Assembly: GCA_021498095.1 (NCBI GenBank)
Contig: JAIZWK010000001.1
Span: forward strand, 4,080,001 to 4,112,000
Direction of reading: 5' to 3'
DNA from: Candidatus Harpocratesius repetitus
GTDB taxonomy: Archaea; Asgardarchaeota; Lokiarchaeia; Sigyniarchaeales; Promethearchaeaceae
Length of the DNA stretch: 32,000 nucleotides
A program made the position numbers and the translations under genes. The notes below the pieces were generated by a model. That model was not told the origin of the DNA. It made no database searches and saw nothing but the letters and a program-made list of their open reading frames with translations. This document shows, in pieces, positions 6,051 through 18,641 of this stretch. Positions within the stretch are counted from its first letter, which is position 1, and every line of letters begins with the position of its first letter.

Positions 6051-7178
6051 TTACATATTCTTACAAATTCTAACAATTTTTTGATATTTTTTGATAATCT
6101 CTTTATTGATATACTCCCATGATCGATTCTCTGAGAAATTCAAAGCATTTTGGCAGAATTTATTATATAAATCATCATTATTGATTAATTGTAAGCAAGC
6201 TTGAAAAAATAACTTTGGTTTTTTTGCATGAACAACTAAACCTGCATTGGATTCTTGGATAATTTCTTGACAACCTCCAATGTCAGATACAATTGCAGGT
6301 ATTCCTGAAGCCAAAGCTTCTTGAACAACTTGCCCAAATGTTTCTGTTGTGGATGGAAATAAGAAGATATCTGCACTGGCAAACACTTGACTCAACATTT
6401 TATCTTCAATATATCCCAAAAAAATTGCTTCTGGCATCAATTCTTCTAATTCATGGCGAATAGGTCCATCACCAGCTAAAACAAAAAGAGATTTTGAAGG
6501 GAATTTAGATTGAAATAAACGATATACCTCCGCAATTACCAGTAAATCTTTATACCATACTAATCGACCTGTATATAGAATTACTTTCCTTTTTCCAACC
6601 TTCCATGAATTTCTAATTGCGCAATTTCTGAATGAAGGATGAAATTGTGTTCGATCAATTCCTCGAGACCATAAAAATACGCGATGAATACCCAATTTTT
6701 CTAAATCATCTTTAATTTTCAAAGTAGGTGTAAAAACTGCGCAAGCTTTATTGTAAAAGGTGCGATACATCCAATTAATTGATCTTTCCAAAAAACCCAT
6801 TTTGTAATATTGAAATACTCGAACAACATCAGAATGGTGAATAAAAACATGTGGAATATTCTGAATTCTGGCATATAAACTTAAAATAAGACCAATTAAA
6901 TCAGGAGTGGCAATGTGGATGATATCTGGTTTGAATTGATTCAATTTTCGGAAAAACCTTCCAATGGGAATCCCAAATTTATATTCTGGATAAAAAAAGA
7001 TAGGAATTGAGGGAAATTGAAAAAGGGTTAGATTTTTCCGTAATTGAGGCGTGATTAAAGGAGATGCTACAAAAACTTTATTATTATTTGCCAGAAAAGA
7101 ATCAACAAGATTATAAGTTGCTCTTGCTACCCCATCATGGTTCTTTTTAAATGTTCCTAAGTAAATTGCTATTTTCAT
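6051..7178 (-). CDS. GT4-family retaining glycosyltransferase (GT-B fold)
   Basis: PDIIHIATP, YTGRLVWYKD and FPSTTETFGQVVQEALASGIPAIVSDIGG (ExFG...E motif); 375 aa. Confidence 0.92.
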   Translation of the reverse strand: MKIAIYLGTFKKNHDGVARATYNLVDSFLANNNKVFVASPLITPQLRKNLTLFQFPSIPIFFYPEYKFGIPIGRFFRKLNQFKPDIIHIATPDLIGLILSLYARIQNIPHVFIHHSDVVRVFQYYKMGFLERSINWMYRTFYNKACAVFTPTLKIKDDLEKLGIHRVFLWSRGIDRTQFHPSFRNCAIRNSWKVGKRKVILYTGRLVWYKDLLVIAEVYRLFQSKFPSKSLFVLAGDGPIRHELEELMPEAIFLGYIEDKMLSQVFASADIFLFPSTTETFGQVVQEALASGIPAIVSDIGGCQEIIQESNAGLVVHAKKPKLFFQACLQLINNDDLYNKFCQNALNFSENRSWEYINKEIIKKYQKIVRICKNM

Positions 7179-7262
7179 GATGTTTTTGCCACATTAAATC
7201 AATACATTTTGATAATATTCACTAAAAGATAATTATTTGCAATACGAGTTGGAAAAAATCAA

Positions 7263-7278
7263 TGTGATTAACTTCACA
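7263..7278. promoter_or_regulatory. Candidate operator TGTGA-N6-TCACA in the divergent GT4 / nuclease-helicase intergenic region
   Basis: The sequence TGTGATTAACTTCACA is an exact CRP-type core palindrome. No cognate regulator lies in the window. Confidence 0.3.
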
Positions 7279-7431
7279 ATGTAACTATTTTTCACAAATC
7301 ATTTAATTAATCTGTAGGGGCATAGGAATTTAAATCTCATAAATGAATAATAATTGAACAGGAAAAAATTATCACTATTATTGTTATTATTTACATATTA
7401 TTTTAACAAATCAAAAGGATAAAACTAGAAA

Positions 7432-10400
7432 ATGGAAAAAAAATCATCCTCCCCTAAAAATCAATCATCTTCATCAGTAATCGATTTACAAATAATTGAT
7501 AAACGTTCAAAAAGTGAAATTGAGAAAGAAATTAAAAATTCTATCAAAATTCCTAAAACATTTGGTAAAAATTCATTAAAACGTCTTATTGAAGTCAATT
7601 GTCTTCGCCAAACCTTTCTTTACCTCCCAAATTCACCACTATGGAGGAATCCAGTGGAAAAACCAGAACCTCGAATTCCAAAACGAGCAGGTTCAGAATT
7701 TTCCATGAAGCAAGGTCATGAATATGAACAAAAAATTTATTCTCATCTTTCTACTCTTCCTTTTTGTTTATGCATTAAAAGTAAAGTAAATAAAATGATC
7801 TTAAAGCGAAATATTACACCACAGTTATTTAAAAAACTATATTATCTTGCTCAAAAAAATAATTTGGATGAATTCATTATTTTGGAAGGTGAATTTGATA
7901 CTGGTGAAGCATTTTTTGAAAAAATCTTCCCTCCAAAACATCCTCAAGATCCACTTCCTATCAAATATTCAAAATTTCGTCCGGATATAATTACAATTCA
8001 ACGGATTACTCCACAAAAAACTAAATCTTCAACGATTTTAGCACTTAACGAATTAGGTATCCAAAAAACTATTTCAATTAATCAGAATTCGCCACTATTC
8101 AAAATATCCATCATCGACATAAAACACGTCTCAGAAAACAATATTGGAAAATCCCATTTTATAGAAATTCTTTATTATATGCATGCAATGGCATGGTATA
8201 TTCATTCTCATGCATTGGATAACATGTTTTTTGTTTCATTAGAAGATAATGGGATTTTACACCTAATAGATGATAACTTAATAGTGCAAATGAATAATAT
8301 TGAACAAATCAATTCCAATTTAGTAAATATAGAATGGAAAAATGTTGCCCGATTATATAGCAACTCAATTAATACATTTAAAGATCTTTGGAAAAAAGCA
8401 CCTTGCAGTATTAATTCTGTACCAATAAATATTCAACCACACTGTGGGAGTTGTCAATTCTTAAATGATTGTATAAAGCGTTTAGGGGTCAATAAAGGAA
8501 ATCCCCCCCAAAATTGGGCATTGGAATTGATTCCTTATACAAGTCCTTCAGTTATTTTACAAATGAAAGATTACGGTTTAAAAACGATTGGAGATGTGGC
8601 ATCAAAACTCCATACTATTCCAATCGGAACGACACCACAACCTCTTTATGCAGAAATGCCTTTAATTCAAAATAGAGCAAAGGCAATAATCCAGCAAACC
8701 CCAATCTATCCATCTACAGGTAGAGTTTATAGTTATGCAGTCCCAAAGTACTCTTCTATGAATTTAATATTTACAATAGAATCAGATCCTTTGAATGAAC
8801 GAGTTTTTGGAATTGGTCTTCGATTAGAAATGATGATTGCAAAAAAAGCCAAGAATTATCCTTTATTTCACCAATGGTGGAAAATATGGAAAGAAGGTCT
8901 TTCACAGAACAAAAGTCCCAGTAAGATTCTTCAAGATCTACAAAAGAATAATCCATTTTACAATAATTTCCCGCTAAAAGCGATTGAATCCTTATATCAT
9001 ATCATTAAAAATATCATTCCCTTAGAAATAATCTTAGAAGGTCAACCCAGACCGAATAAAAAACCTTACCAGAGAACTAAAGTAAATTATGAATTCAACA
9101 TTGTGAATCAAAGTGTGAAAAATTCTAATGACGAATTAATAATGTTGTTAAAAATAATTGACAAACTCATTGCAATCATTGAAATATGCACCATTATTGA
9201 AAATTATTTGGTGTATGAATATAGAGTCATTATAAAAAAAAAGGAATATTATCGGAAACTACGATTACATCTGTCTATCTATTATTGGGCTCAAGATCAA
9301 ATCCAAAACATGCGAGATTTAATGGAAAGAAATTTTGATAATTTACTAAATTCTTCTGGTTATCAGCAAAAATTACTAAAAATCATTCAATTTTTTACTC
9401 CAGCAGAATCAGAAATTTCGCATCCATATCAACATAATAAAATATATGATCTTCTAAAATTTGTTGAATGTGTAATTGGATTTCCATCCTTAATTAATTA
9501 TACTTGGCATGAAATTGGAGCTACAATTTTTAACACAAAATTTAAGCAAAAATTTTGGATAACTCACTTTAATTATATGGATTATCAAGTTTGGTATGAA
9601 TTTTTAGAAACGAAAGATCTGGTATTGAAAAAAAAACTTGAAGAAGAAATTCAATATCAACTATCAAGAAAGACTAAATATATTAATTTAATCAGAAAAA
9701 AGTTTCAAGTAGAAGCAACAGAATCAATCCCTCTTGAATCAAAACCTGTTTCTCTAGATTCTTTTTCTCAAGTAATGGTTCCTCGTTCATTTCACAAAAT
9801 TGCTCATCTTTGGTACTTTTTTGCTAGATTAACAGGGGCTGTTGATGAACTTGAAAAAGAAGAAATAAGAACCATGTTCCCAGAGTATAGTATTGGTAAA
9901 CTCAATGCAGCTGAAGTTCAAAATCTCAGTTTTATTCAAACAAATCCACAAAAAAATTCATATTATATTTTTGAAATAAGAGATCTTTCCAGTAATATGA
10001 AATTGAAGGAAAAAGATCGAGTTTTATTAATCCCAGATGAATTTCGCGATAAGAAAATAGGACCTTGGGTGTATAAATGGATAGTAATCATAGAAAATCT
10101 AATTTGGAATTCGAAAATTCATGGTTTTATTATCAAAACCTATCCACATAATGTTGATTTGGTCAAAAATTATCAAGCATTTACTTCTATTCCAAAAAGA
10201 GAACCAAAATGGTATATTTTTCCATTACCATTAGATGTTTGGAGTAATAAACTCTATAATGGTAACGGAAGCGGATTACTTGAAAATCATCACTTCGGAG
10301 ACAGTTGGTTGGGTTCACTTCTTGCCTACTTATGGGAAATTGATCCACAAACAAAAATTTCAGTTCCGCTATCATGGGAATTTCAATTGACAGAAATATA

Positions 10401-12585
10401 CCTTTTCAACCCAAAAATTCTTACAACTTTACCATTTGAACCAAAATCATTTGAACAAATAAAAAAGGGTAAATTTCCAAATTTATTATCTACAGCTTTT
10501 CCAAAACCTGATCCATCTCAAAAAGAAGCCATTTGTTTGGCTCTCAACTCATACATTCATGCAATACAAGGTCCTCCTGGAACAGGAAAATCACAAACAA
10601 TTACAACATTGATAGATGAATATATTTGTAGAATTAAGCAGAGATTTGGAGAAAACACACAAATAAGAATATTAATTACTGCCTTTTCTTATGCAGCCAT
10701 ACGAGTTTTAATTGATAAAATTCGCGCGAGTCAAGATTCAAAAGGGAATAAAACCCAAGTAGCTTCCATGCAGTTAATATATTTACATTCTGAAATGATA
10801 GAACCAATCGAAGAAGTTCCTGGATTACCACACATTGATGATTTAATACATAAATCAAATGGAGGATGGCTCTGGAATGGTCAAAAAAGAATAATAACTA
10901 AGAAGAAACCGTTGCAAAATGTTCTCCAAAATCAATTTATCCTTTTTGGAAATGCACATCAATTATATCATATTCCAAAATGCACAATCCCACAAATTTC
11001 GTTTGATTTAATAATTGTCGATGAAGCGAGTCAAGTGCCAACGGATCATTTTTTGGCATCTCTACAATTTGTACATTCCAATGTTCTCTCTATTTCACCA
11101 GTTTCCTCTTTGAATTCGATAAAAAATGTACCTTTACAATATTCAGATGATGAATTTCATGAAATTAATTCAGACGAAATCACACAGATAGTTATCGTTG
11201 GTGATTATTTCCAATTACCTCCTGTTCAACCGATAGAACCTCCAAAGAAAGTAGAACAAATATTAGGAAGTTTGTATTCATATTATGTCCGCTATCACGG
11301 AATTTCACAAAGTCAATTACGAATTAATTATCGATCTCATCCAGATATTGTAGAATTTACAAGGCAATTGTCATTATATCAAAATTTAAAAGCACATTTC
11401 AATGCTATCAAATTATCTTTATCATGTAAACTACCATCCTCATCTCCAAAATGGATTAAAGAGATATTTAAATCAGAACGGGTAGTTTCTACAATTATTC
11501 ATGAGTACGAATTTGAAATAGCAATTAGCCCTGTTGAAGCATTTCTAATAAGCAAAATACTTTTATATTATTGGAGATCTCTTAATATCAAGACAATTGA
11601 AGAAGAGAGAAAATTCTGGCTGGAATCAGTTGGAGTTGTTTCCCCTCATAATGCCCAAGGACGACAAATTCTCCGACAAGTCTTTCTAGAAATGACAAAT
11701 AAAAAAAATCGCTTAACACTCTTGTCTGATGAAGAATTAATGAAATGTTTACAAGCCACAATTTATTCTGTTGAGAAATTTCAAGGTTCAGACAGAGATT
11801 TGATTATTGCTTCAGTTGGAATTTCAGATAAAGATCATTTAAAGAAAGAAGAAGAGTTTATCTACGATTTAAATAGATTTAATGTTTTAACATCGAGAGC
11901 AAAACGGAAATTAATCTACATTTGCAGCCGATCCTTTTTAGAGTACATCCCTCATGATAAAATGCTGATAAATTACGCCGCTCAAACTTATAAATATGCA
12001 TTTGAATTTTGCAATCAGGAAAAACTATTATTTTTTAAGAATCATTTGGGTTATCAAGATTATTTCTATTTCCGATGGCATGAAAATCAAAATTCTTTAC
12101 CAAAGGCAGTTATTCCTTTTTCAACATTTAATTATGATATAATATATACAAATCAGAATAAATTAACAATTACTGCTACTTCACAAAAAGATTTTTTAGA
12201 AATAATTAAATCTATCCCAACCAATCAAGTATCAAAAGCCTTTCTTGATAATGGTCAAAAAATAAAGGTTGAAGTAGTTATTAGTGATCCAGAGAAAATC
12301 GCAAAAATTGTACCTATACCTCAAAAATTGCAGCATACTTTTTTTAATTCTGGTTCAAAATCAAAGTATAAAAATACTACACAGTTAAAATCGAACTTAA
12401 TAAAAAAAAAAAATAAATCAAATATCAAAAAAATCGATAAAAATAATTTATCGAAGAAGAAAGTAAAATCAAAAAATAATTCAAATTCAAAACCTGATGT
12501 AAAAAAATCAGGAAAAGGTAAAAAAAAACTACCAGAAAAGAAATTGTCGGTAAAATTGCATGATACTGACGATGATCTTTTTTAG
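7432..12585 (+). CDS. Fe-S PD-(D/E)XK (RecB/Cas4/Dna2-type) nuclease fused to an SF1 Upf1/Dna2-like helicase; TM0106-like architecture, 1717 aa
   Basis: C57 plus C338-xx-C341-x5-C347; GHEYE, RPD185, D229-I-K231 and EILYY nuclease motifs; HhH-like segment at about 364-390; RNase H-like segment from about 445. Helicase motifs: GPPGTGKS (1047-1054), DEASQ (1197), VGDYFQLPP, YRSHPDI, VEKFQGSDRD, RFNVLTSRAK. Lys-rich tail ending DDDLF. Confidence 0.9.
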   Translation: MEKKSSSPKNQSSSSVIDLQIIDKRSKSEIEKEIKNSIKIPKTFGKNSLKRLIEVNCLRQTFLYLPNSPLWRNPVEKPEPRIPKRAGSEFSMKQGHEYEQKIYSHLSTLPFCLCIKSKVNKMILKRNITPQLFKKLYYLAQKNNLDEFIILEGEFDTGEAFFEKIFPPKHPQDPLPIKYSKFRPDIITIQRITPQKTKSSTILALNELGIQKTISINQNSPLFKISIIDIKHVSENNIGKSHFIEILYYMHAMAWYIHSHALDNMFFVSLEDNGILHLIDDNLIVQMNNIEQINSNLVNIEWKNVARLYSNSINTFKDLWKKAPCSINSVPINIQPHCGSCQFLNDCIKRLGVNKGNPPQNWALELIPYTSPSVILQMKDYGLKTIGDVASKLHTIPIGTTPQPLYAEMPLIQNRAKAIIQQTPIYPSTGRVYSYAVPKYSSMNLIFTIESDPLNERVFGIGLRLEMMIAKKAKNYPLFHQWWKIWKEGLSQNKSPSKILQDLQKNNPFYNNFPLKAIESLYHIIKNIIPLEIILEGQPRPNKKPYQRTKVNYEFNIVNQSVKNSNDELIMLLKIIDKLIAIIEICTIIENYLVYEYRVIIKKKEYYRKLRLHLSIYYWAQDQIQNMRDLMERNFDNLLNSSGYQQKLLKIIQFFTPAESEISHPYQHNKIYDLLKFVECVIGFPSLINYTWHEIGATIFNTKFKQKFWITHFNYMDYQVWYEFLETKDLVLKKKLEEEIQYQLSRKTKYINLIRKKFQVEATESIPLESKPVSLDSFSQVMVPRSFHKIAHLWYFFARLTGAVDELEKEEIRTMFPEYSIGKLNAAEVQNLSFIQTNPQKNSYYIFEIRDLSSNMKLKEKDRVLLIPDEFRDKKIGPWVYKWIVIIENLIWNSKIHGFIIKTYPHNVDLVKNYQAFTSIPKREPKWYIFPLPLDVWSNKLYNGNGSGLLENHHFGDSWLGSLLAYLWEIDPQTKISVPLSWEFQLTEIYLFNPKILTTLPFEPKSFEQIKKGKFPNLLSTAFPKPDPSQKEAICLALNSYIHAIQGPPGTGKSQTITTLIDEYICRIKQRFGENTQIRILITAFSYAAIRVLIDKIRASQDSKGNKTQVASMQLIYLHSEMIEPIEEVPGLPHIDDLIHKSNGGWLWNGQKRIITKKKPLQNVLQNQFILFGNAHQLYHIPKCTIPQISFDLIIVDEASQVPTDHFLASLQFVHSNVLSISPVSSLNSIKNVPLQYSDDEFHEINSDEITQIVIVGDYFQLPPVQPIEPPKKVEQILGSLYSYYVRYHGISQSQLRINYRSHPDIVEFTRQLSLYQNLKAHFNAIKLSLSCKLPSSSPKWIKEIFKSERVVSTIIHEYEFEIAISPVEAFLISKILLYYWRSLNIKTIEEERKFWLESVGVVSPHNAQGRQILRQVFLEMTNKKNRLTLLSDEELMKCLQATIYSVEKFQGSDRDLIIASVGISDKDHLKKEEEFIYDLNRFNVLTSRAKRKLIYICSRSFLEYIPHDKMLINYAAQTYKYAFEFCNQEKLLFFKNHLGYQDYFYFRWHENQNSLPKAVIPFSTFNYDIIYTNQNKLTITATSQKDFLEIIKSIPTNQVSKAFLDNGQKIKVEVVISDPEKIAKIVPIPQKLQHTFFNSGSKSKYKNTTQLKSNLIKKKNKSNIKKIDKNNLSKKKVKSKNNSNSKPDVKKSGKGKKKLPEKKLSVKLHDTDDDLF

Positions 12586-12682
12586 TTAAATTTGATCTTA
12601 AAGATAGAAACAACAAATTAATTCAAAACGATTCAGTAGATCTAAAACTTTGCAAAATAATTTAAAACGATGGGGAAGTTGA

Positions 12683-14320
12683 ATGAAACCATTTAAATTT
12701 ATTCATATGGCAGATACTCACTTAGGAAATGTACAATATCACCTTTTTGAGCGATTTCGTGATTTTAATCGTGCTTTTAATGCAGTATTGCATAAAGCTC
12801 TCGAAGAAAATGTTGATTTTATAATACATGCAGGGGATTTTTTTAATTCAAATCGAATCAACCCAGAAACATTATCTGCATGTTATTTAATGATAAAACA
12901 ATTTCAAGATAAAGCAGTAGAACTTTTTGGACATAAGATTCCAATTATTGTAATTGAAGGAAATCATGATAAAAGGAATTATTTTGCAAAACGGTCTTGG
13001 TTAAAATTTTTGGCAGATTTAGATCTAATTTCATTATTATCAATAAATTTTCAGGAAAATCAAAGTACTGGAATTTTTAAGCCGTATTCAGCAAAAAAGA
13101 AAATTGGAAATGTAGTGTCTATTGGGGATGCAAAAATATATGGAATTCCTTCCTATGGCGCACTTACACAAGAGTTACTCCCAAAAATTTATAATTCTTT
13201 ACCTTCAGATGATGATAGATTTAATATCTTGATTATGCATTTTGGAATTCAAGGCCAAGTAAAAGGTAAATTGGGATTGGAAATAACCCCAGACTTAAAC
13301 GCAATTCATGAAAAAATCGATTATTTGGCTTTAGGACACTATCATAAGCATTATTCACTTCCAGAAAATAATCCTTGGATTTATAATCCGGGTTCAACAG
13401 AAATTAATGCTCCAAAAGAATTATATGGAGATAATGGAGAACCATTCCAAAGAGGCGTTTTTTTAGTAGAAGTTTTCGGAAAGGCAGAAGAACAAAGACG
13501 AGTTCAACTTATTGAATTTGAAAATGGAGAAAATGAAGATTCCAGTACTCTTCCAAATAGGGCATTTTATAATGTTAAATTAGATGTAGAAGGTATTTCA
13601 TTAAGCAATTTTGATGATTTAACAGATTTTGTAATAGAACAAGTTAAAAAACAAGGATTCACAATTCTTTCAGGAATTAAACGTGAACAACTGAATTTTC
13701 GAGATTTAAACCTTCCATTTCTATACATATCCATCTTTGGAACAATTCCATTTTCTAAACTAGACTTAAATTTCTCCAAAATGCGAAAAAAAATCCTTAA
13801 TACTTTTCAAATTTTTGAAACACGAATTTTTGCACAAGGTTTAGCTTCAGAAATGGATGATATTTCGATTATTAAGAATGAAAACCGCACTGTCGATGAT
13901 ATTGAAACAGAAATCTTAACAAAAATGATTTCCCTACATCCAGAATATCAACTTTATACTAATGAAATTGTAAAGTTGATGAAAGATTTAAAGAAACCAT
14001 TATTATCGAAAAGAACTGGAAATTCTGTATTTCAAGAAATAATTGCATGGTGGAATTCTATTTTTCCAAAGAAAGAAGCAGAAATGAATTTCCATAAGGA
14101 CCGAAAAACTTTAGCGGATTTTTTACCAAGTTCATTATCTTCTAAACCATCTAAAAATAAATATGGTGAAGAAAATACAGAAAAAGAAAGGTTAAAGGAT
14201 TTAAATATAGAAAGAAAAAAATCAGATGAAGAAGAAATAGATGATGACGAAATAGATGAAGAACAAGTTGAAGAAGAATTGGATAATAATTATGAAAAAT
14301 TAAACTATGAAGGGAGGTAA
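12683..14320 (+). CDS. mre11: Mre11/SbcD DNA double-strand-break repair nuclease
   Basis: ADTHLG, HAGDFF, GNHD, MHFG, GHYH and YNPGS motifs; immediately upstream of rad50; acidic C-terminal tail. Confidence 0.95.
   Translation: MKPFKFIHMADTHLGNVQYHLFERFRDFNRAFNAVLHKALEENVDFIIHAGDFFNSNRINPETLSACYLMIKQFQDKAVELFGHKIPIIVIEGNHDKRNYFAKRSWLKFLADLDLISLLSINFQENQSTGIFKPYSAKKKIGNVVSIGDAKIYGIPSYGALTQELLPKIYNSLPSDDDRFNILIMHFGIQGQVKGKLGLEITPDLNAIHEKIDYLALGHYHKHYSLPENNPWIYNPGSTEINAPKELYGDNGEPFQRGVFLVEVFGKAEEQRRVQLIEFENGENEDSSTLPNRAFYNVKLDVEGISLSNFDDLTDFVIEQVKKQGFTILSGIKREQLNFRDLNLPFLYISIFGTIPFSKLDLNFSKMRKKILNTFQIFETRIFAQGLASEMDDISIIKNENRTVDDIETEILTKMISLHPEYQLYTNEIVKLMKDLKKPLLSKRTGNSVFQEIIAWWNSIFPKKEAEMNFHKDRKTLADFLPSSLSSKPSKNKYGEENTEKERLKDLNIERKKSDEEEIDDDEIDEEQVEEELDNNYEKLNYEGR
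14312..14318 (+). promoter_or_regulatory. Ribosome-binding site GGGAGGT for rad50, inside the last codons of mre11
   Basis: Lies 7 nt before ATG 14326; the mre11-rad50 gap is only 5 bp. Confidence 0.7.
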
Positions 14321-14325
14321 TAATA

Positions 14326-17025
14326 ATGATTCAAAGAATCCAATTAATCAATATAACAACCCATAAAAATAGCATTATTGAATTTAAACGCGGTATTAAT
14401 TCACTCATGGGCGATAATGGGGCAGGAAAATCAACAGTTTTACAAATGATTGGTTTTGTATTATTTGATTTTTTACCTGGAAGAAATCAAAAACAATATG
14501 TTCGAATAGGTGCTAAAGAAAATTTTGGAGAAGTAAAATTATGGATCATAGGTAGAGATGGAGAAGAATATATGATTTATCGGACAATTGGAAAACCTAA
14601 AAATGAATTATCAGTTACTCATACACAAACCGGAATTATCCTTAAGGATATTAACTCTCTCCAAAATTTCCGAGAATGGGTTCATTTAATATTAGGAATT
14701 CGGTCTGATCTCCCTTTAAAAACAATTTTTGAAAATGGAATAGGAGTTCGACAGGGAACTTTTACAGAACCATTCTTGCGAAATCCTACAGGAAGGGCTC
14801 TTGTTTTTGCACCATTATTAAATGTTGATATTTATTCAAAACTATTCAAAAATTTTCTACATACTATTAAAGATTTTGAGAATGAAATCCACGAAAAAGG
14901 AATTCAGAAAAGTGGTCTTGAAGGAGAATTGAAAATTAAGCCAGAATTAGAAGAACGAGAAAAAATATTTTCAAAAAAGATAAAAAAAATAAAAAAAGAC
15001 ATACAAATGCTTAATTCAGAATGGAAAAAAGTGCATAAACACTTTGCTGAACTTGAAAAAATTAAGGAAGAGATCACCACAATTCAAAAAACCATTGATA
15101 TTTTAAAGCAAGATGTTTCAGGACAAGAAAAAATGTTGAAAGAACTCGCAAATAATCTTAGGGAAGCAAAAAAGGCTCAAGATATTTGCATGAAATCTGA
15201 AGAAAATTATCAAAAATATAAAGAGCTTGAAAAGAAAAATAGAATACTTTCTTCCAAAATTCGAGTTTGGAGACAAAACAAAGATAAATTAACGAATTTT
15301 GAAAAAAAACTGGCTGAACTTCAGACTCAAAAAAAGCAACTTGATAAAGAAATAACAGAAATTGAAAAATTAAAGGATGAACTTCCAAATTTAGAAAAAA
15401 TACATCAAAAATTCGAAAAATATAACCAAAATGCCGAAAAACTTCGAATACAAAAGGACAGAATTGTTGAAAAAGAGAAAATTTCAACTCAATTAAAAAA
15501 AGAATTAAAATTGTTGAATACTCTACCAAAAAAACAGCAAAAAATCAATGCAGAATATGAAAACATTCAGAAAGAGTTACAGGAATTAGAAAAACTTGAA
15601 AATAAAGTAAAACAAAATCAAATTGATTTGAAAACACACCAAAATCAGATAAAAGAATTAAAATTGTATATCAAACAAGCTAATAATGGAATATGTCCTG
15701 TTTGTGATCAACCATATAACAACCCTCATAAAGATCTTAAAAGTTATTTTGCAGAGAAAATTGAAATTCATGAAAAAAAGGTAAAAGAATTATCCAACTT
15801 AATTAAAAATCAAAATATAAAATTAAAACAAAAATCAGTATTGCAAAAGCGTAGAGATCGTTGTGTTGAACTCATAAGTCAATATAGAGAACAAATGGAA
15901 CAATTAAAAAGAAAGCAAAGAGAATTAGATGAATTGAAACCGATCATTGAAACAAAACAATCCATACTAAACCAAATATCAGAATTAGAACAAAAAATCG
16001 AACAATTGAAAGATCAAAACCAGCGATATAATTTTGTGACAATTAAAGTTCAGAAAGAACTTATTAATTTTCAAGCATCTGCGTATAATGTCACACAAAA
16101 AATCAACAAAATAAAGAAAGAAATGGAACCCATTGAACAAAAAGTTGAAGAAGGTAAAGATTTAGAGAAAAATCAAATGGAAACTCAAAATTCTTTAGAA
16201 AAATATAAATCTTTTTATGATTTATATCAAAAAAATCAAAAATTAGCCATTAGACTACCTGAATTCAAACAAAAATTGGAAGGAAATAGAATCGAGTTAG
16301 AAAGCTCTAAAAAAGATCTAAAAAATCACACGATTAAACTTAATTCTCTGTTGAAGAACTTTGACGAAAGAGAATTTTCTGAATTAGAAATGCGTCAAAA
16401 TCACATTCAAACAAAAATGATTCAAAAAGAAGAAGAATTCAAACACGTGAAAAATGATTTGGATGATATAAAGAGAAACTTAAGTGTTTTGAAGAATAAA
16501 GAAGAAGAATTATCTCAAATAATATATCATTTAGAGAAATTAATAGAAATAAAAGAATTTTCAGAACTTTTAAGGACTTGGTTTAAAGAAGCAGGCCCAA
16601 AAATAACTGAAGCTTTGATCTCTAACATAAATCAAACCGCCACTGCAATTCTAAGACAAATTAAAGAAGATTCAAATCTTTACATTGAATGGCAAAAAGA
16701 TTACGATGTTATTCTTCAAAGTGAAAAAATTCCAAAGAGAAACTTTTCTCAACTTTCCGGAGGAGAACAAATGGCTGTAGCTTTAGCAATCCGACTTTCT
16801 ATTTTGAAAATATTAACGCAAATCGATTTTGCTTTCTTTGATGAACCTACAACTAACTTAGATGAAGCAACTCGCAGAAATTTAGCTCAAAGTATCCAAA
16901 ACGTTCGAGGATTTGAACAAATTTTTGTAATTTCACATGATGATACTTTTGCAGATTATGCAGATTATAAAATTCGATTATCGAAAAATGAAGACGAAAT
17001 TACAAATGTCGAAATAGAATTCTAA
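14326..17025 (+). CDS. rad50: Rad50/SbcC SMC-family ATPase
   Basis: Walker A GDNGAGKS, long coiled coil with a central CPVC zinc hook, LSGGE signature, FFDEPT Walker B and ISHD H-loop. Confidence 0.96.
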   Translation: MIQRIQLINITTHKNSIIEFKRGINSLMGDNGAGKSTVLQMIGFVLFDFLPGRNQKQYVRIGAKENFGEVKLWIIGRDGEEYMIYRTIGKPKNELSVTHTQTGIILKDINSLQNFREWVHLILGIRSDLPLKTIFENGIGVRQGTFTEPFLRNPTGRALVFAPLLNVDIYSKLFKNFLHTIKDFENEIHEKGIQKSGLEGELKIKPELEEREKIFSKKIKKIKKDIQMLNSEWKKVHKHFAELEKIKEEITTIQKTIDILKQDVSGQEKMLKELANNLREAKKAQDICMKSEENYQKYKELEKKNRILSSKIRVWRQNKDKLTNFEKKLAELQTQKKQLDKEITEIEKLKDELPNLEKIHQKFEKYNQNAEKLRIQKDRIVEKEKISTQLKKELKLLNTLPKKQQKINAEYENIQKELQELEKLENKVKQNQIDLKTHQNQIKELKLYIKQANNGICPVCDQPYNNPHKDLKSYFAEKIEIHEKKVKELSNLIKNQNIKLKQKSVLQKRRDRCVELISQYREQMEQLKRKQRELDELKPIIETKQSILNQISELEQKIEQLKDQNQRYNFVTIKVQKELINFQASAYNVTQKINKIKKEMEPIEQKVEEGKDLEKNQMETQNSLEKYKSFYDLYQKNQKLAIRLPEFKQKLEGNRIELESSKKDLKNHTIKLNSLLKNFDEREFSELEMRQNHIQTKMIQKEEEFKHVKNDLDDIKRNLSVLKNKEEELSQIIYHLEKLIEIKEFSELLRTWFKEAGPKITEALISNINQTATAILRQIKEDSNLYIEWQKDYDVILQSEKIPKRNFSQLSGGEQMAVALAIRLSILKILTQIDFAFFDEPTTNLDEATRRNLAQSIQNVRGFEQIFVISHDDTFADYADYKIRLSKNEDEITNVEIEF

Positions 17026-17201
17026 TAAAAACAATAATCTACATCCTAATATAGTTTTAGATAAGAATAGAAAAAGATTTCTTAACTTTGATTACTTCCA
17101 CAACACTCATTCGGGAATAAACATGAATTGATTGTACAAATTAGTAAAAAGTAATTAATATCGAAAAAAGTGAAATAAAAAAAATCTTTTTTAGATTTAG
17201 A

Positions 17202-18641
17202 TCATGGATTAATTTCATTACCTTGTTTTTCAAGTTCAGCTTCGTAGTGAGTTTGACACAATCCTCCAGATGGAAGAATTCGAAGATCTGTTTCTTTATC
17301 AAAGAAATGAATTTGATCATCCATGAATTGCACTTTTACTGGTTCATCGATCTTCAATTTTGTAATTCCTTCTTGTTTGACAATAATTTCTAAATTATCG
17401 AAAATTGAATTTCGAGATTTTCTTTTAATGGGAAAATCAATGTATACAAATGTATCTGAACCAATAGGCTCTAGAACACCAATTGTTGCATCCAGTTTTG
17501 CTTCAGGGGTATTCAATAAAATATGTTCAGGTCGGATACCCAAAGTTACTTCTTTATTAATAAAATTACTCAATCCTACCTTATAATAATCAGGAATATT
17601 ATAAGAAAATGCTTCTGATACAAATTGAAGCTGTTCACTGTTTTTTTCGATTCTTCCTTCAACAAAATTCATAGGAGGAGATCCTATAAAACCAGCTACG
17701 AACTTATTCACTGGTTGTCGGTACACTTCTTCTGGAGTTCCAACTTGATTTGCTATGCCTTCATTTAACACTACAATACGGTTTCCTAATGTCATTGCTT
17801 CTATTTGATCATGAGTTACATATAAGGTCGTAACTCTAAGCTTTTTGGTTAATCGTTCTAATTCAGCCCGCATCTGAACCCTAAGTTTTGCATCTAAATT
17901 GCTTAATGGTTCATCCATCAAGAAAGCTTTTGGATTTCGAATAATTGCACGCCCTAATGCAACTCGTTGGCGCTGTCCACCACTCAATTGTTTAGGTTTT
18001 TTCCAAAGTTGAGTCTCAATACCCAATAACTCAGATGTTTCTTTTACCTTTTGCCGAATTTTCTCTTCTCTGGAAAGATATTCTTGAAATATTGGAATCT
18101 TCATCTTCATTGCCCAAAAACGAAGATTCATCATTTTAATATCTTGTCTAGTCTCAGGGAAGGAATATAACATAAAAATCCACCCCAAAATCCCTGCAAC
18201 AAATATTAAATTAATATATTCGGGAACAATTTGGCCCAAAAGCTGGCAAAATCCATAATATAAACTAACAATACCTCCGTAAAATAAAAGAAGAGCCATC
18301 GAAATCATCAAGTTTGCCCATTTTATTTTCTCTCGATTTCTGATACCAAATGCAAGGTTTTCATAGATTGTATAATGGGGATATAAAGCATAGGACTGAA
18401 AAACCATAGCTATATTCCTATCTTTCGGAGATATATCATTGATTATTTCTCCATCAATGGAAATAGTACCACTAGTTATAGTTTCTAATCCTGCCAACAT
18501 TCGGAGTGTAGTAGTTTTCCCACATCCGGATGGTCCGACTAAACAAACGAACTCTTCATCAGATACTTCTAAATTAAAGTTCTTAACTGCTTCAAATGTT
18601 CCAAATTTTTTAGTGATATTCTTAAATTCTATTTTTGCCAT
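17202..18641 (-). CDS. malK: Carbohydrate ABC importer ATPase (MalK/MsmK type) with an ~85-aa hydrophobic insert
   Basis: GPSGCGKT, VFQSYALYPH, LSGGQRQR, DEPLSNLD, VTHDQ, VAGFIGSPPMN and a TOBE-like C-terminus (LGIRPEH). AAGGAG RBS upstream. Confidence 0.95.
   Translation of the reverse strand: MAKIEFKNITKKFGTFEAVKNFNLEVSDEEFVCLVGPSGCGKTTTLRMLAGLETITSGTISIDGEIINDISPKDRNIAMVFQSYALYPHYTIYENLAFGIRNREKIKWANLMISMALLLFYGGIVSLYYGFCQLLGQIVPEYINLIFVAGILGWIFMLYSFPETRQDIKMMNLRFWAMKMKIPIFQEYLSREEKIRQKVKETSELLGIETQLWKKPKQLSGGQRQRVALGRAIIRNPKAFLMDEPLSNLDAKLRVQMRAELERLTKKLRVTTLYVTHDQIEAMTLGNRIVVLNEGIANQVGTPEEVYRQPVNKFVAGFIGSPPMNFVEGRIEKNSEQLQFVSEAFSYNIPDYYKVGLSNFINKEVTLGIRPEHILLNTPEAKLDATIGVLEPIGSDTFVYIDFPIKRKSRNSIFDNLEIIVKQEGITKLKIDEPVKVQFMDDQIHFFDKETDLRILPSGGLCQTHYEAELEKQGNEINP

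Follow-up and report, generated by a model that had tools for sequence, protein, structure and literature searches.

A candidate DNA-end resection module of a Lokiarchaeial order: a gene for an SF1B helicase with two nuclease-type domains, linked to a diverged mre11-rad50 pair

The genome of Candidatus Harpocratesius repetitus, an Asgard archaeon of the Lokiarchaeia, encodes a large nuclease-helicase directly ahead of its mre11 and rad50 genes, and the question raised by this locus is whether the three genes make up a DNA-end resection machine, a defence system, or only a neighbourhood of independent enzymes. The stretch analysed (contig JAIZWK010000001.1, positions 4,080,001 to 4,112,000 of the forward strand), called the window below, is 32,000 nucleotides (nt) long with 30% G+C, and coordinates refer to it unless they are marked as genome positions. 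We suggest, with a probability of roughly 55%, that the trio is a chromosomal, lineage-specific DNA-end resection module of a Lokiarchaeial order. End processing is the best reading because the adjacency of the genes survives inversion and insertion, their presence co-varies, their trees are congruent, they occur nearly to the exclusion of the canonical repair operon, and in this genome they are the sole copy.

The module comprises three plus strand open reading frames (ORFs), of 1717, 545 and 899 amino acids (aa), and two gaps, the second of which, between mre11 and rad50, is 5 nt long:

7432..12585, plus strand: gene 1, nuclease-helicase P0001 (ORF with about 149 homolog clusters)
12586..12682, plus strand: spacer of 97 nt between gene 1 and mre11 (direct sequence reading)
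12683..14320, plus strand: gene 2, "long-type" Mre11, P0002, 545 aa (Metallophos, 5.9e-16; Mre11_Pyroc, 1.9e-26)
14326..17025, plus strand: gene 3, Rad50, P0003, 899 aa (end-to-end PRK03918 alignment)

These ORF coordinates confirm the three co-oriented genes, spaced 97 and 5 nt apart, that had been proposed from the letters and their translations (below, the sequence-only reading). To judge by its length and homologs, the gene 1 frame is far beyond chance, having 1717 codons at 30% G+C and about 150 homolog clusters.

The linkage extends beyond this genome, as follows from a synteny check made in 301 genomes of the phylum (90 of them high-quality) and, for the order, in 76 genomes. Wherever the helicase and the long Mre11 genes share a contig they are adjacent (13 of 13 genomes), being co-oriented in 12 cases and divergent in one (G282), and this adjacency, limited to the long type of Mre11, spans sequence divergence down to about 37% identity. 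The helicase is present in 19 and the long Mre11 in 17 of the 76 order genomes; 15 genomes have both, four the helicase only, two the Mre11 only and 55 neither (Fisher p 1.6e-10, which, like the Fisher value given below, overstates significance because related genomes are treated as independent).

Two metagenomic contigs repeat the helicase-mre11 adjacency with different flanks. In the first (L019, from a 37%-identical relative; 6350-9758, minus strand), the divergent upstream genes are two unannotated ones, for proteins of 285 aa and 248 aa, and one for a DNA ligase of the ATP-dependent kind; no ligase lies near the module in the window. The second (L020, from a 45%-identical relative) has a 947-aa leucine-rich repeat gene (15246-18089) between the nuclease-helicase and mre11, which overlaps the helicase stop codon.

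In their distribution, the module and the canonical Mre11-Rad50 system of the order nearly exclude each other. Genomes G204 and G207, which are without the module, possess a four-gene operon for a 376-aa protein, HerA, Mre11 (426 aa) and Rad50 (707 aa, with a CSLC hook); the 376-aa protein gave no family match and has no similarity to the NurA of the window genome. Mre11 of this operon type was found in 25 of the 76 order genomes and also, with 36-42% identity, in three Asgard families outside the order. It accompanies the long Mre11 in one of 17 genomes (G030, which does carry both the module type and the canonical operon type) and is present in 24 of the 59 others; the remaining counts are 16 genomes with the long type only and 35 with neither (Fisher p 0.0075). 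At the same time, 18 of the 19 helicase genomes carry one of these two Mre11-Rad50 systems.

The trees point to a common history of the linked genes. In a maximum-likelihood tree of 44 Mre11 proteins, three groups are resolved: an operon-type clade on a long branch (support 100/100), a broad Asgard clade, and an order-specific clade (100/99) in which the long (99/97) and short (100/99) types are sisters. The long type (497-550 aa) is 36-67% identical to the window Mre11, while the short type (about 395 aa) stands alone and is common in the order. The long clade divides along the two families of the order, and the nuclease-domain tree has a corresponding clade (96/96) that unites the Mre11-Rad50-linked domains of family f2; this agreement suggests vertical co-inheritance with losses. 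The unlinked genome G222 is nested within this linked nuclease clade, so that secondary loss of linkage is indicated for it.

Several observations concern the other Mre11 genes of the order. The short Mre11 (L053:9181-10371, minus strand; equivalents in L054-L060) has its motifs intact and no Rad50, HerA or NurA gene beside it. In the sister species, which belongs to the same genus (G089, L058:7959-10623), a second Mre11-like gene, split into two short ORFs by an internal TAA, lies directly downstream of a gene for a 606-aa HerA-like ATPase; this locus may be a decaying herA-mre11, and no similar remnant was found in the window genome. Three 100%-complete genomes of the order (G040, G113 and G147) yielded none of the three Mre11 types at E<=1e-15 and 1e-20, and Mre11 may be dispensable or very divergent in them.

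The window genome, assembled as a single closed 4.36-Mb contig, contains no Mre11 gene and no Rad50-grade gene other than the one of each in the module, the next Rad50 matches being SMC-size proteins. A search of it for a canonical herA-mre11-rad50-nurA set or for other mre11/rad50 paralogs found none, and Mre11 of the short and operon types was likewise not found. The idea that the module pair is an accessory extra beside a housekeeping pair is ruled out here, since it is the sole pair in the genome, though it does apply to at least one other genome, G030. In the window genome the module probably supplies the housekeeping Mre11-Rad50 function. The sequence-only reading had described the trio as standing without herA and nurA, which is true of the locus and fails genome-wide: an adjacent nurA-herA pair is located at genome positions 2,552,948-2,555,073, about 1.5 Mb from the module, with no mre11-rad50 beside it. 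The sole NurA of the genome (388 aa) and the HerA next to it (528 aa) are encoded as a tight pair (L022:7505-15462; genome positions 2,552,504-2,560,461, minus strand) directly downstream of two genes, which encode an NTPase of the STAND/AAA type (1388 aa) and a protein of 339 aa. No close ortholog of this HerA was found in five relatives, where the best matches are HerA-like proteins at about 30% identity.

Gene 1 itself is a multi-domain protein, in which the following parts can be recognised:

7561..8481, plus strand: Cas4-like PD-(D/E)xK nuclease with a four-Cys cage of the iron-sulphur (Fe-S) type, residues ~44-350 (model with pLDDT 93; VIA-align)
8488..8706, plus strand: DNA-binding domain of the (HhH)2 type, residues ~353-425 (VIA-align)
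8749..9756, plus strand: DEDD (DnaQ-like) 3'-5' exonuclease fold, residues ~440-775 (model with pLDDT 90; VIA-align)
9769..10431, plus strand: helical stalk and beta-barrel, residues ~780-1000, the 1B-type accessory domains seen in helicases like Upf1 (Foldseek)
10489..12006, plus strand: Upf1-like superfamily 1B (SF1B) helicase core, residues ~1020-1525 (Pfam AAA_11/AAA_12, PDB sequence matches, motifs)
12007..12585, plus strand: C-terminal extension, residues 1526-1717 (sequence, family alignment)

An exhaustive HMMER search recovered relatives in 149 clusters, 98 of them at E<1e-30, and nearly all are proteins of 1400-1750 aa with the same architecture. All the named homologs belong to Promethearchaeota/Promethearchaeia, the nearest (88% identity) being labelled Candidatus Harpocratesius sp. 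Conservation was counted in an alignment of 60 members with identity down to 19%. The cage is formed by C57, C338, C341 and C347, and the candidate active-site residues are E152, D185, D229-x-K231 and E245xxxY249. K46, C57, R59, G95, E152, D185, K231, Y249, C338 and C341 are invariant in all 60 members, and C347, D229, E245 and E99 are conserved in at least 90%; such conservation of the Cys and active-site residues implies that the four-Cys cage and the PD-(D/E)xK site, both noticed in the sequence-only reading, are real and under selection. Its full set of Upf1/Dna2-type SF1 motifs was also borne out, as Walker A (1047-1054), DEASQ (1197-1201), GDxxQLPP (1257-1264), NYRS (1299-1302), VEKFQGSDR (1447-1455) and NVLxSRAK (1484-1491) are invariant or nearly so.

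Family models recognise gene 1 in the C-terminal helicase, with Pfam matches to AAA_11 (2.3e-11) and AAA_12 (2.4e-19). Residues 1-1020 gave no NCBIfam match and no Pfam match, either whole, or in four pieces at E<=10, or in any of the 60 relatives. The Cas4 model PF01930 found nothing in gene 1 or in the relatives scanned; TIGR03491 did not match P0001 at E<=0.1, and matched five of the 60 relatives weakly (best E 2.7e-5). The PDB sequence matches are to IGHMBP2 and Upf1 (5e-6) and, across just 65 residues, to Dna2 (1e-3). Matches of the helicase to the defence helicases MkoA (7.6e-30), DpdJ, ProA and Hhe are weak, and there is no full-length match to a PADLOC defence-system model, where helicase-core or ABC-head segments alone match (MkoA, DpdJ, LmuB, mad3).

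Two AlphaFold models of parts of gene 1, built with family alignments, had a pLDDT of 93.0 with a pTM of 0.90, and 90.1 with 0.86; their folds were compared by VIA-align and by Foldseek searches of PDB and of AlphaFold clusters. Neither model matched PDB in Foldseek at E<=0.001. By VIA-align the nuclease is closest to Cas4 (7mi4_A, Z 11.0, root-mean-square deviation (rmsd) 4.5, 198 residues aligned; 8d3l_I, Z 10.3), followed by RecE, SSO0001 and AdnAB (Z 8.1-8.5, with 8.1 for 9np6_A of AdnAB), AddB (3u44_B, 7.7) and Dna2 (5ean_A, 7.2). The next domain (model residues 314-385) aligns to the N-terminal domain of Rad51 (3lda_A, Z 8.0, rmsd 2.5, 61 residues aligned) and also to NusA AR2, the RNA polymerase alpha C-terminal domain and the RAD51C N-terminal domain. 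The barrel and stalk have local Foldseek matches to SETX (8ftm_B, probability 0.99), Upf1 (2xzp, 0.98), Sen1 (8ram_O, 0.97) and Dna2 (5ean_A, 0.91).

The family B polymerases provide, with their exonuclease domains, the nearest counterparts of the DEDD fold: 66 chains reach Z of at least 8, headed by Pol alpha (8d0b_F, Z 13.7, rmsd 3.3, 191 residues aligned), Pol epsilon (4m8o_A, 13.4) and archaeal PolB (4flt_A, 13.2), and PolB, Pol epsilon, ExoI, 3'hExo and TREX1 all align at Z 9-13. Both the helix-hairpin-helix (HhH) domain (Z 8.0) and the RNase H-like middle region (Z 13.7) of the sequence-only reading are therefore recovered in the models. The candidate catalytic residues are E450 (conserved in 53 of 60 members), D452 (54/60), E568 (60/60), E590 (55/60), H712 (49/60) and D717 (47/60), with an H712-x4-D717 spacing. 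In the secondary structure of the model, they occupy the elements which bear ExoI, ExoII and ExoIII in DEDDh enzymes, namely beta1 at its end, the helix that follows beta3 at its start, and the region just ahead of a late helix; the best matches include the inactive exonuclease of Pol alpha. On this model, activity as a 3'-5' exonuclease is plausible.

The C-terminal extension combines a small domain with a low-complexity tract rich in Lys and an acidic tip whose last residues are DDDLF-COOH. It is present in about 12 of the 60 family members, where the body of the tail varies and the [DE][DE]xLF terminus is kept, so to go by its sequence the tip looks like a short docking motif. Comparable acidic-aromatic tips are known from the bacterial SSB tail and from the RPA70N/PIKK-binding peptides. 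Since the extension is absent from the Mre11-Rad50-linked proteins of family f2, it is probably not the general connector to Mre11-Rad50.

The AlphaFold-cluster matches place the N-terminal part of gene 1 in a known bacterial layout. The two models share a set of collinear matches to bacterial entries, annotated as PD-(D/E)XK, YprB RNase H-like or TM0106 family, some of them with helicases; clusters A0A6G8IEW2, A0A235ARS7, A0A6C0VHL5 and A0A0D8BS88 match both halves at E 1e-8 to 1e-14. Gene 1, as the models and alignments present it, is a nuclease layout of the TM0106/YprB type fused to an SF1B motor, Dna2-like in design and not a Dna2 ortholog. The caveat of the sequence-only reading, that the TM0106 type fits better than Dna2 orthology, has thus held, as the N-terminal 800 residues match the TM0106/YprB architecture. 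The AlphaFold entry Q54P97 (1679 aa, "DNA2/NAM7 helicase-like") is also collinear with both models (nuclease at 273-589, middle region at 667-1157); its accession series is presumably that of Dictyostelium discoideum, and if the protein is eukaryotic, the TM0106-helicase architecture occurs in some eukaryotes too.

The partners of gene 1 retain the features of their families. Pfam assigns gene 2 to the calcineurin-type phosphoesterases and gene 3 to the SMC/Rad50 head. Phosphoesterase motifs I-V of Mre11 are intact (D11/H13, GDFF51, GNHD93, GHYH218), and the protein has a C-terminal extension of about 160 residues with an acidic tail. The Walker A and B of Rad50 are at 29 and 837, its LSGGE signature is at 810 and its H-loop at 869, and the centre of the coiled coil carries the zinc hook, the sole CxxC of the protein:

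15694..15705, plus strand: Rad50 zinc hook CPVC, residues 457-460

All the Lokiarchaeial Mre11 and Rad50 proteins scored fall far below the curated NCBIfam cut-offs. The module Mre11 reaches 92.9 bits against the curated archaeal equivalog model (cut-off 600), with a match over the N-terminal 234 positions alone, and Rad50, aligned to PRK03918 over residues 2-889 (3-870 of 878 in the model), reaches 250.8 bits (cut-off 700). Scores just as low were obtained for Lokiarchaeial Mre11s of the operon and short types, and we therefore conclude that the curated Mre11 models do not fit Asgard sequences.

A possible course of end processing can be outlined from well-studied relatives of these proteins. 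Mre11-Rad50 would recognise, tether and clip the DNA end, after which the nuclease-helicase would load on the 5' strand exposed as single-stranded DNA. The SF1B motor of the enzyme would run 5'->3', as do Dna2, Bad and RecD2, and would feed the strand to the Cas4-like nuclease, resulting in long-range resection; the (HhH)2 domain may hold the duplex, and the DEDD domain may trim or limit the 3' strand or remove 3' blocks. Bad, a fusion of an Fe-S nuclease to an SF1B motor, was found by experiment to couple a 5'->3' motor on single-stranded DNA to a single-strand nuclease (PMC7430649). We incline, by a little, to the view that the module parallels MRN-Dna2, AddAB/AdnAB and HerA-NurA-Mre11-Rad50 in function, having been built independently from a TM0106/YprB-type nuclease and a helicase. 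A further step, that a single-chain SF1B motor with two nucleases and a diverged Mre11-Rad50 replaced the ancestral HerA-NurA-Mre11-Rad50 operon, as an independent prokaryotic counterpart of the eukaryotic solution with Mre11-Rad50 and a Dna2-like enzyme, is tentative, and we consider that the odds are against it.

The taxonomic scope of the module is narrower than the Asgard double-strand break resection module first proposed: the conserved linkage to mre11-rad50 (13/13) stands, and the Asgard-wide extent does not, with 17-19 of 76 order genomes positive and the helicase alone in other lineages. The module is an order-level trait, not a general Asgard feature. The nuclease domain of gene 1 occurs in 33 of the 301 Asgard genomes (12 of the 90 high-quality ones), its counts by family being 4/6 (f1), 14/69 (f2), 9/11 (f16), 3/11 (f29) and 1/3 (f27). 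A module universal in Lokiarchaeia was considered and is ruled out by the patchy presence of the helicase (19/76) and the long Mre11 (17/76).

The resection reading has to be weighed against a number of contrary points, among which the overstated Fisher significance has been mentioned. Since nurA-herA are still present in the genome, resection here can be explained without the module. The distribution of the module is patchy, and a second profile also found no nuclease-helicase in five near-complete relatives, several of them 100% complete. The helicase stands alone in genomes G183 and G222 and in three Asgard families (f16, f27, f29), one contig (L105) has a long Mre11-Rad50 pair without the upstream helicase, and a standalone homolog (P0016) lies beside restriction-modification, GmrSD and HEPN genes. 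Finally, the 97-nt spacer has a T6 run over the stop codon of gene 1, then an A/T-rich stretch, and GGGG about 8 nt ahead of the mre11 ATG; it could carry its own promoter, so that gene 1 may or may not be co-transcribed with mre11. A sigma-70/intrinsic-terminator scan, which is not meaningful for an archaeon, found no plus strand terminator in the spacer.

Part of these points would suit an accessory system against mobile genetic elements, in which Mre11-Rad50 senses or clips free or unusual viral or plasmid ends and the dual-nuclease helicase degrades the DNA processively, like RecBCD/AddAB before Chi. Such a system would explain why presence is patchy even within genera (5/28 in g8, 1/22 in g5) and why two nuclease domains of opposite expected polarity, suited to the destruction of both strands, are mounted on one motor; the defence-gene neighbours of the standalone member and the weak matches to MkoA, DpdJ, ProA and Hhe agree with it as well. 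However, the defence-library matches are limited to the generic SF1 core, the window flanks are free of defence and mobility genes with local synteny kept, and the trees favour vertical inheritance with loss over frequent transfer. Moreover, the module contains the sole Mre11 and Rad50 of a closed genome, and its anticorrelation with the canonical repair operon is expected of a replacement, not of an add-on. We therefore regard defence as unlikely. The standalone member, P0016 (L018:19296-23661), is the most distant full-length relative examined; it has beside it a type II restriction-modification pair (N6_N4_Mtase, HinfI), split GmrSD_N genes and a HEPN_RiboL-PSP gene, a context that is defence-island-like.

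Still less probable, in our opinion, is that regulation or history alone made these genes neighbours, the nuclease-helicase serving in Okazaki or flap processing, at stalled forks, or in the removal of R-loops and RNA-DNA hybrids with no cooperation from Mre11-Rad50. The lineages and genomes where the enzyme has no linked Mre11-Rad50, the T-run spacer and a helicase core whose sequence stands closest to those of Upf1 and IGHMBP2, both RNA/DNA helicases, are in line with such independence; it is opposed by an adjacency without exception among same-contig genomes, which outlasts a change of orientation (G282) and an insertion (L020), and by the strong presence/absence covariation (15/4/2/55), to which the Mre11-Rad50 systems of 18 of the 19 helicase genomes may be added. 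That eukaryotic Dna2 descends directly from gene 1 or has its archaeal ortholog in it, and that the operon is a precursor of the MRN-Dna2 pathway, is very improbable, as the same two superfamily domains in the same order, the same C-x(n)-CxxC-x5-C cage, the Dna2 structural matches of nuclease and barrel/stalk, and the Asgard host are outweighed by a nuclease to which Cas4, RecE, AdnB and AddB are all nearer than Dna2 is (Z 11.0 for Cas4, 7.2 for Dna2), a sequence similarity of 65 helicase residues at E 1e-3 that is weaker than that to Upf1/IGHMBP2, the (HhH)2 and DEDD domains which Dna2 lacks between nuclease and motor, a whole N-terminal layout collinear with bacterial TM0106/YprB-type proteins, and a Mre11-Rad50 linkage confined to one order not known as the closest to eukaryotes.

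The surroundings of the module, according to a Pfam scan of the neighbours, are a glycosyltransferase gene upstream and an ABC sugar-uptake cluster downstream, with no mobility, integrase or defence genes in the window. Upstream synteny is common to the window and the 45%-identical relative. The upstream gene (6051-7178, minus strand), divergent from gene 1, encodes a glycosyltransferase of the GT4 family with a secondary match to PF20706 ("GT4 in conflict systems") that passes the cut-off, at 32.4 bits over 51 residues; the same gene lies upstream of the module in L020, and the protein is probably a generic GT4.

To our knowledge, DNA-end resection in non-thermophilic archaea is poorly known, and so is the way in which the eukaryotic MRN-Dna2/Exo1 scheme replaced HerA-NurA. 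The resection reading makes the module a concrete candidate in this field, with a motor, an Fe-S nuclease and a putative 3'-5' exonuclease on one polypeptide, accompanied by its own Mre11-Rad50. Its near-exclusive distribution relative to the canonical operon may be regarded as a natural replacement experiment, and it offers a first plausible role for the widespread TM0106/YprB-type architecture. If the replacement proposal is true, a Dna2-like solution arose independently in close archaeal relatives of eukaryotes; if the module is a defence system instead, it would be a new one based on Rad50/Mre11. Full-text literature searches found no published description of the module, and a 2026 review treats Asgard resection proteins as uncharacterised (PMC13748450).

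Comparison with known systems begins with Cas4, the best structural match of the gene 1 nuclease (Z 11.0 and 10.3) with the same four-Cys arrangement; in gene 1 this nuclease is embedded in a 1717-aa multi-domain helicase, and the window ORFs scanned against Pfam and NCBIfam gave no cas-family matches, CRISPR arrays not having been searched for. The TM0106/YprB proteins (TIGR03491; DUF2779/DUF83-type), some of which are fused to SF1 helicases, share with gene 1 the collinear nuclease, HhH and RNase H-like exonuclease. Gene 1 differs from them by the absence of TIGR03491 and Pfam matches in residues 1-1020, and represents an Asgard-centred branch which is always fused to a helicase and, in this order, tied to Mre11-Rad50. 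We know of no established function for TM0106-type proteins.

Like gene 1, eukaryotic Dna2 (5ean/5eaw/5eax) carries a PD-(D/E)xK nuclease with four Cys of the Fe-S type on the N-terminal side of its motor, which is of the Upf1-like SF1B kind and has the barrel and stalk. Gene 1 has about 420 extra residues between nuclease and motor, comprising the (HhH)2 domain and the DEDD fold of about 335 residues, and is without the N-terminal OB/RPA-binding region of Dna2; the likeness to the partnership of Dna2 with MRN/MRX is genomic only, consisting in gene linkage. In AddAB, AdnAB and RecBCD, as in gene 1, a motor is coupled to a nuclease of the RecB/Cas4 family, there is more than one nuclease or putative nuclease site, and two strands can potentially be processed; AddB, moreover, carries an Fe-S cluster. 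Gene 1 differs in being a single chain with one motor, in having a second, putative nuclease of the DEDD and not the RecB type, and in its linkage to Mre11-Rad50, which those enzymes do not require. We know of no Chi-type control for the gene 1 machine.

Bad of Geobacillus stearothermophilus is like gene 1 a single-chain Fe-S nuclease with a 5'->3' SF1B translocase, and its published abstract reports a single-strand DNA endonuclease, a processive 5'->3' motor and a cryptic helicase, and mentions neither a DEDD/(HhH)2 module nor a Mre11-Rad50 partner (PMC7430649). By analogy, Bad is the best experimental guide to the activities which gene 1 may be expected to have. The archaeal herA-mre11-rad50-nurA operon, lastly, is like the module in encoding Mre11-Rad50 together with a motor and a nuclease for long-range resection, and relatives without the module often carry a herA-mre11-rad50 operon (L061, L062). 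The module differs from it by a Mre11 of a different clade and a longer Rad50 (899 vs 707 aa), and by one SF1B chain with two nuclease-type domains in the place of the hexameric FtsK-like HerA and a separate NurA.

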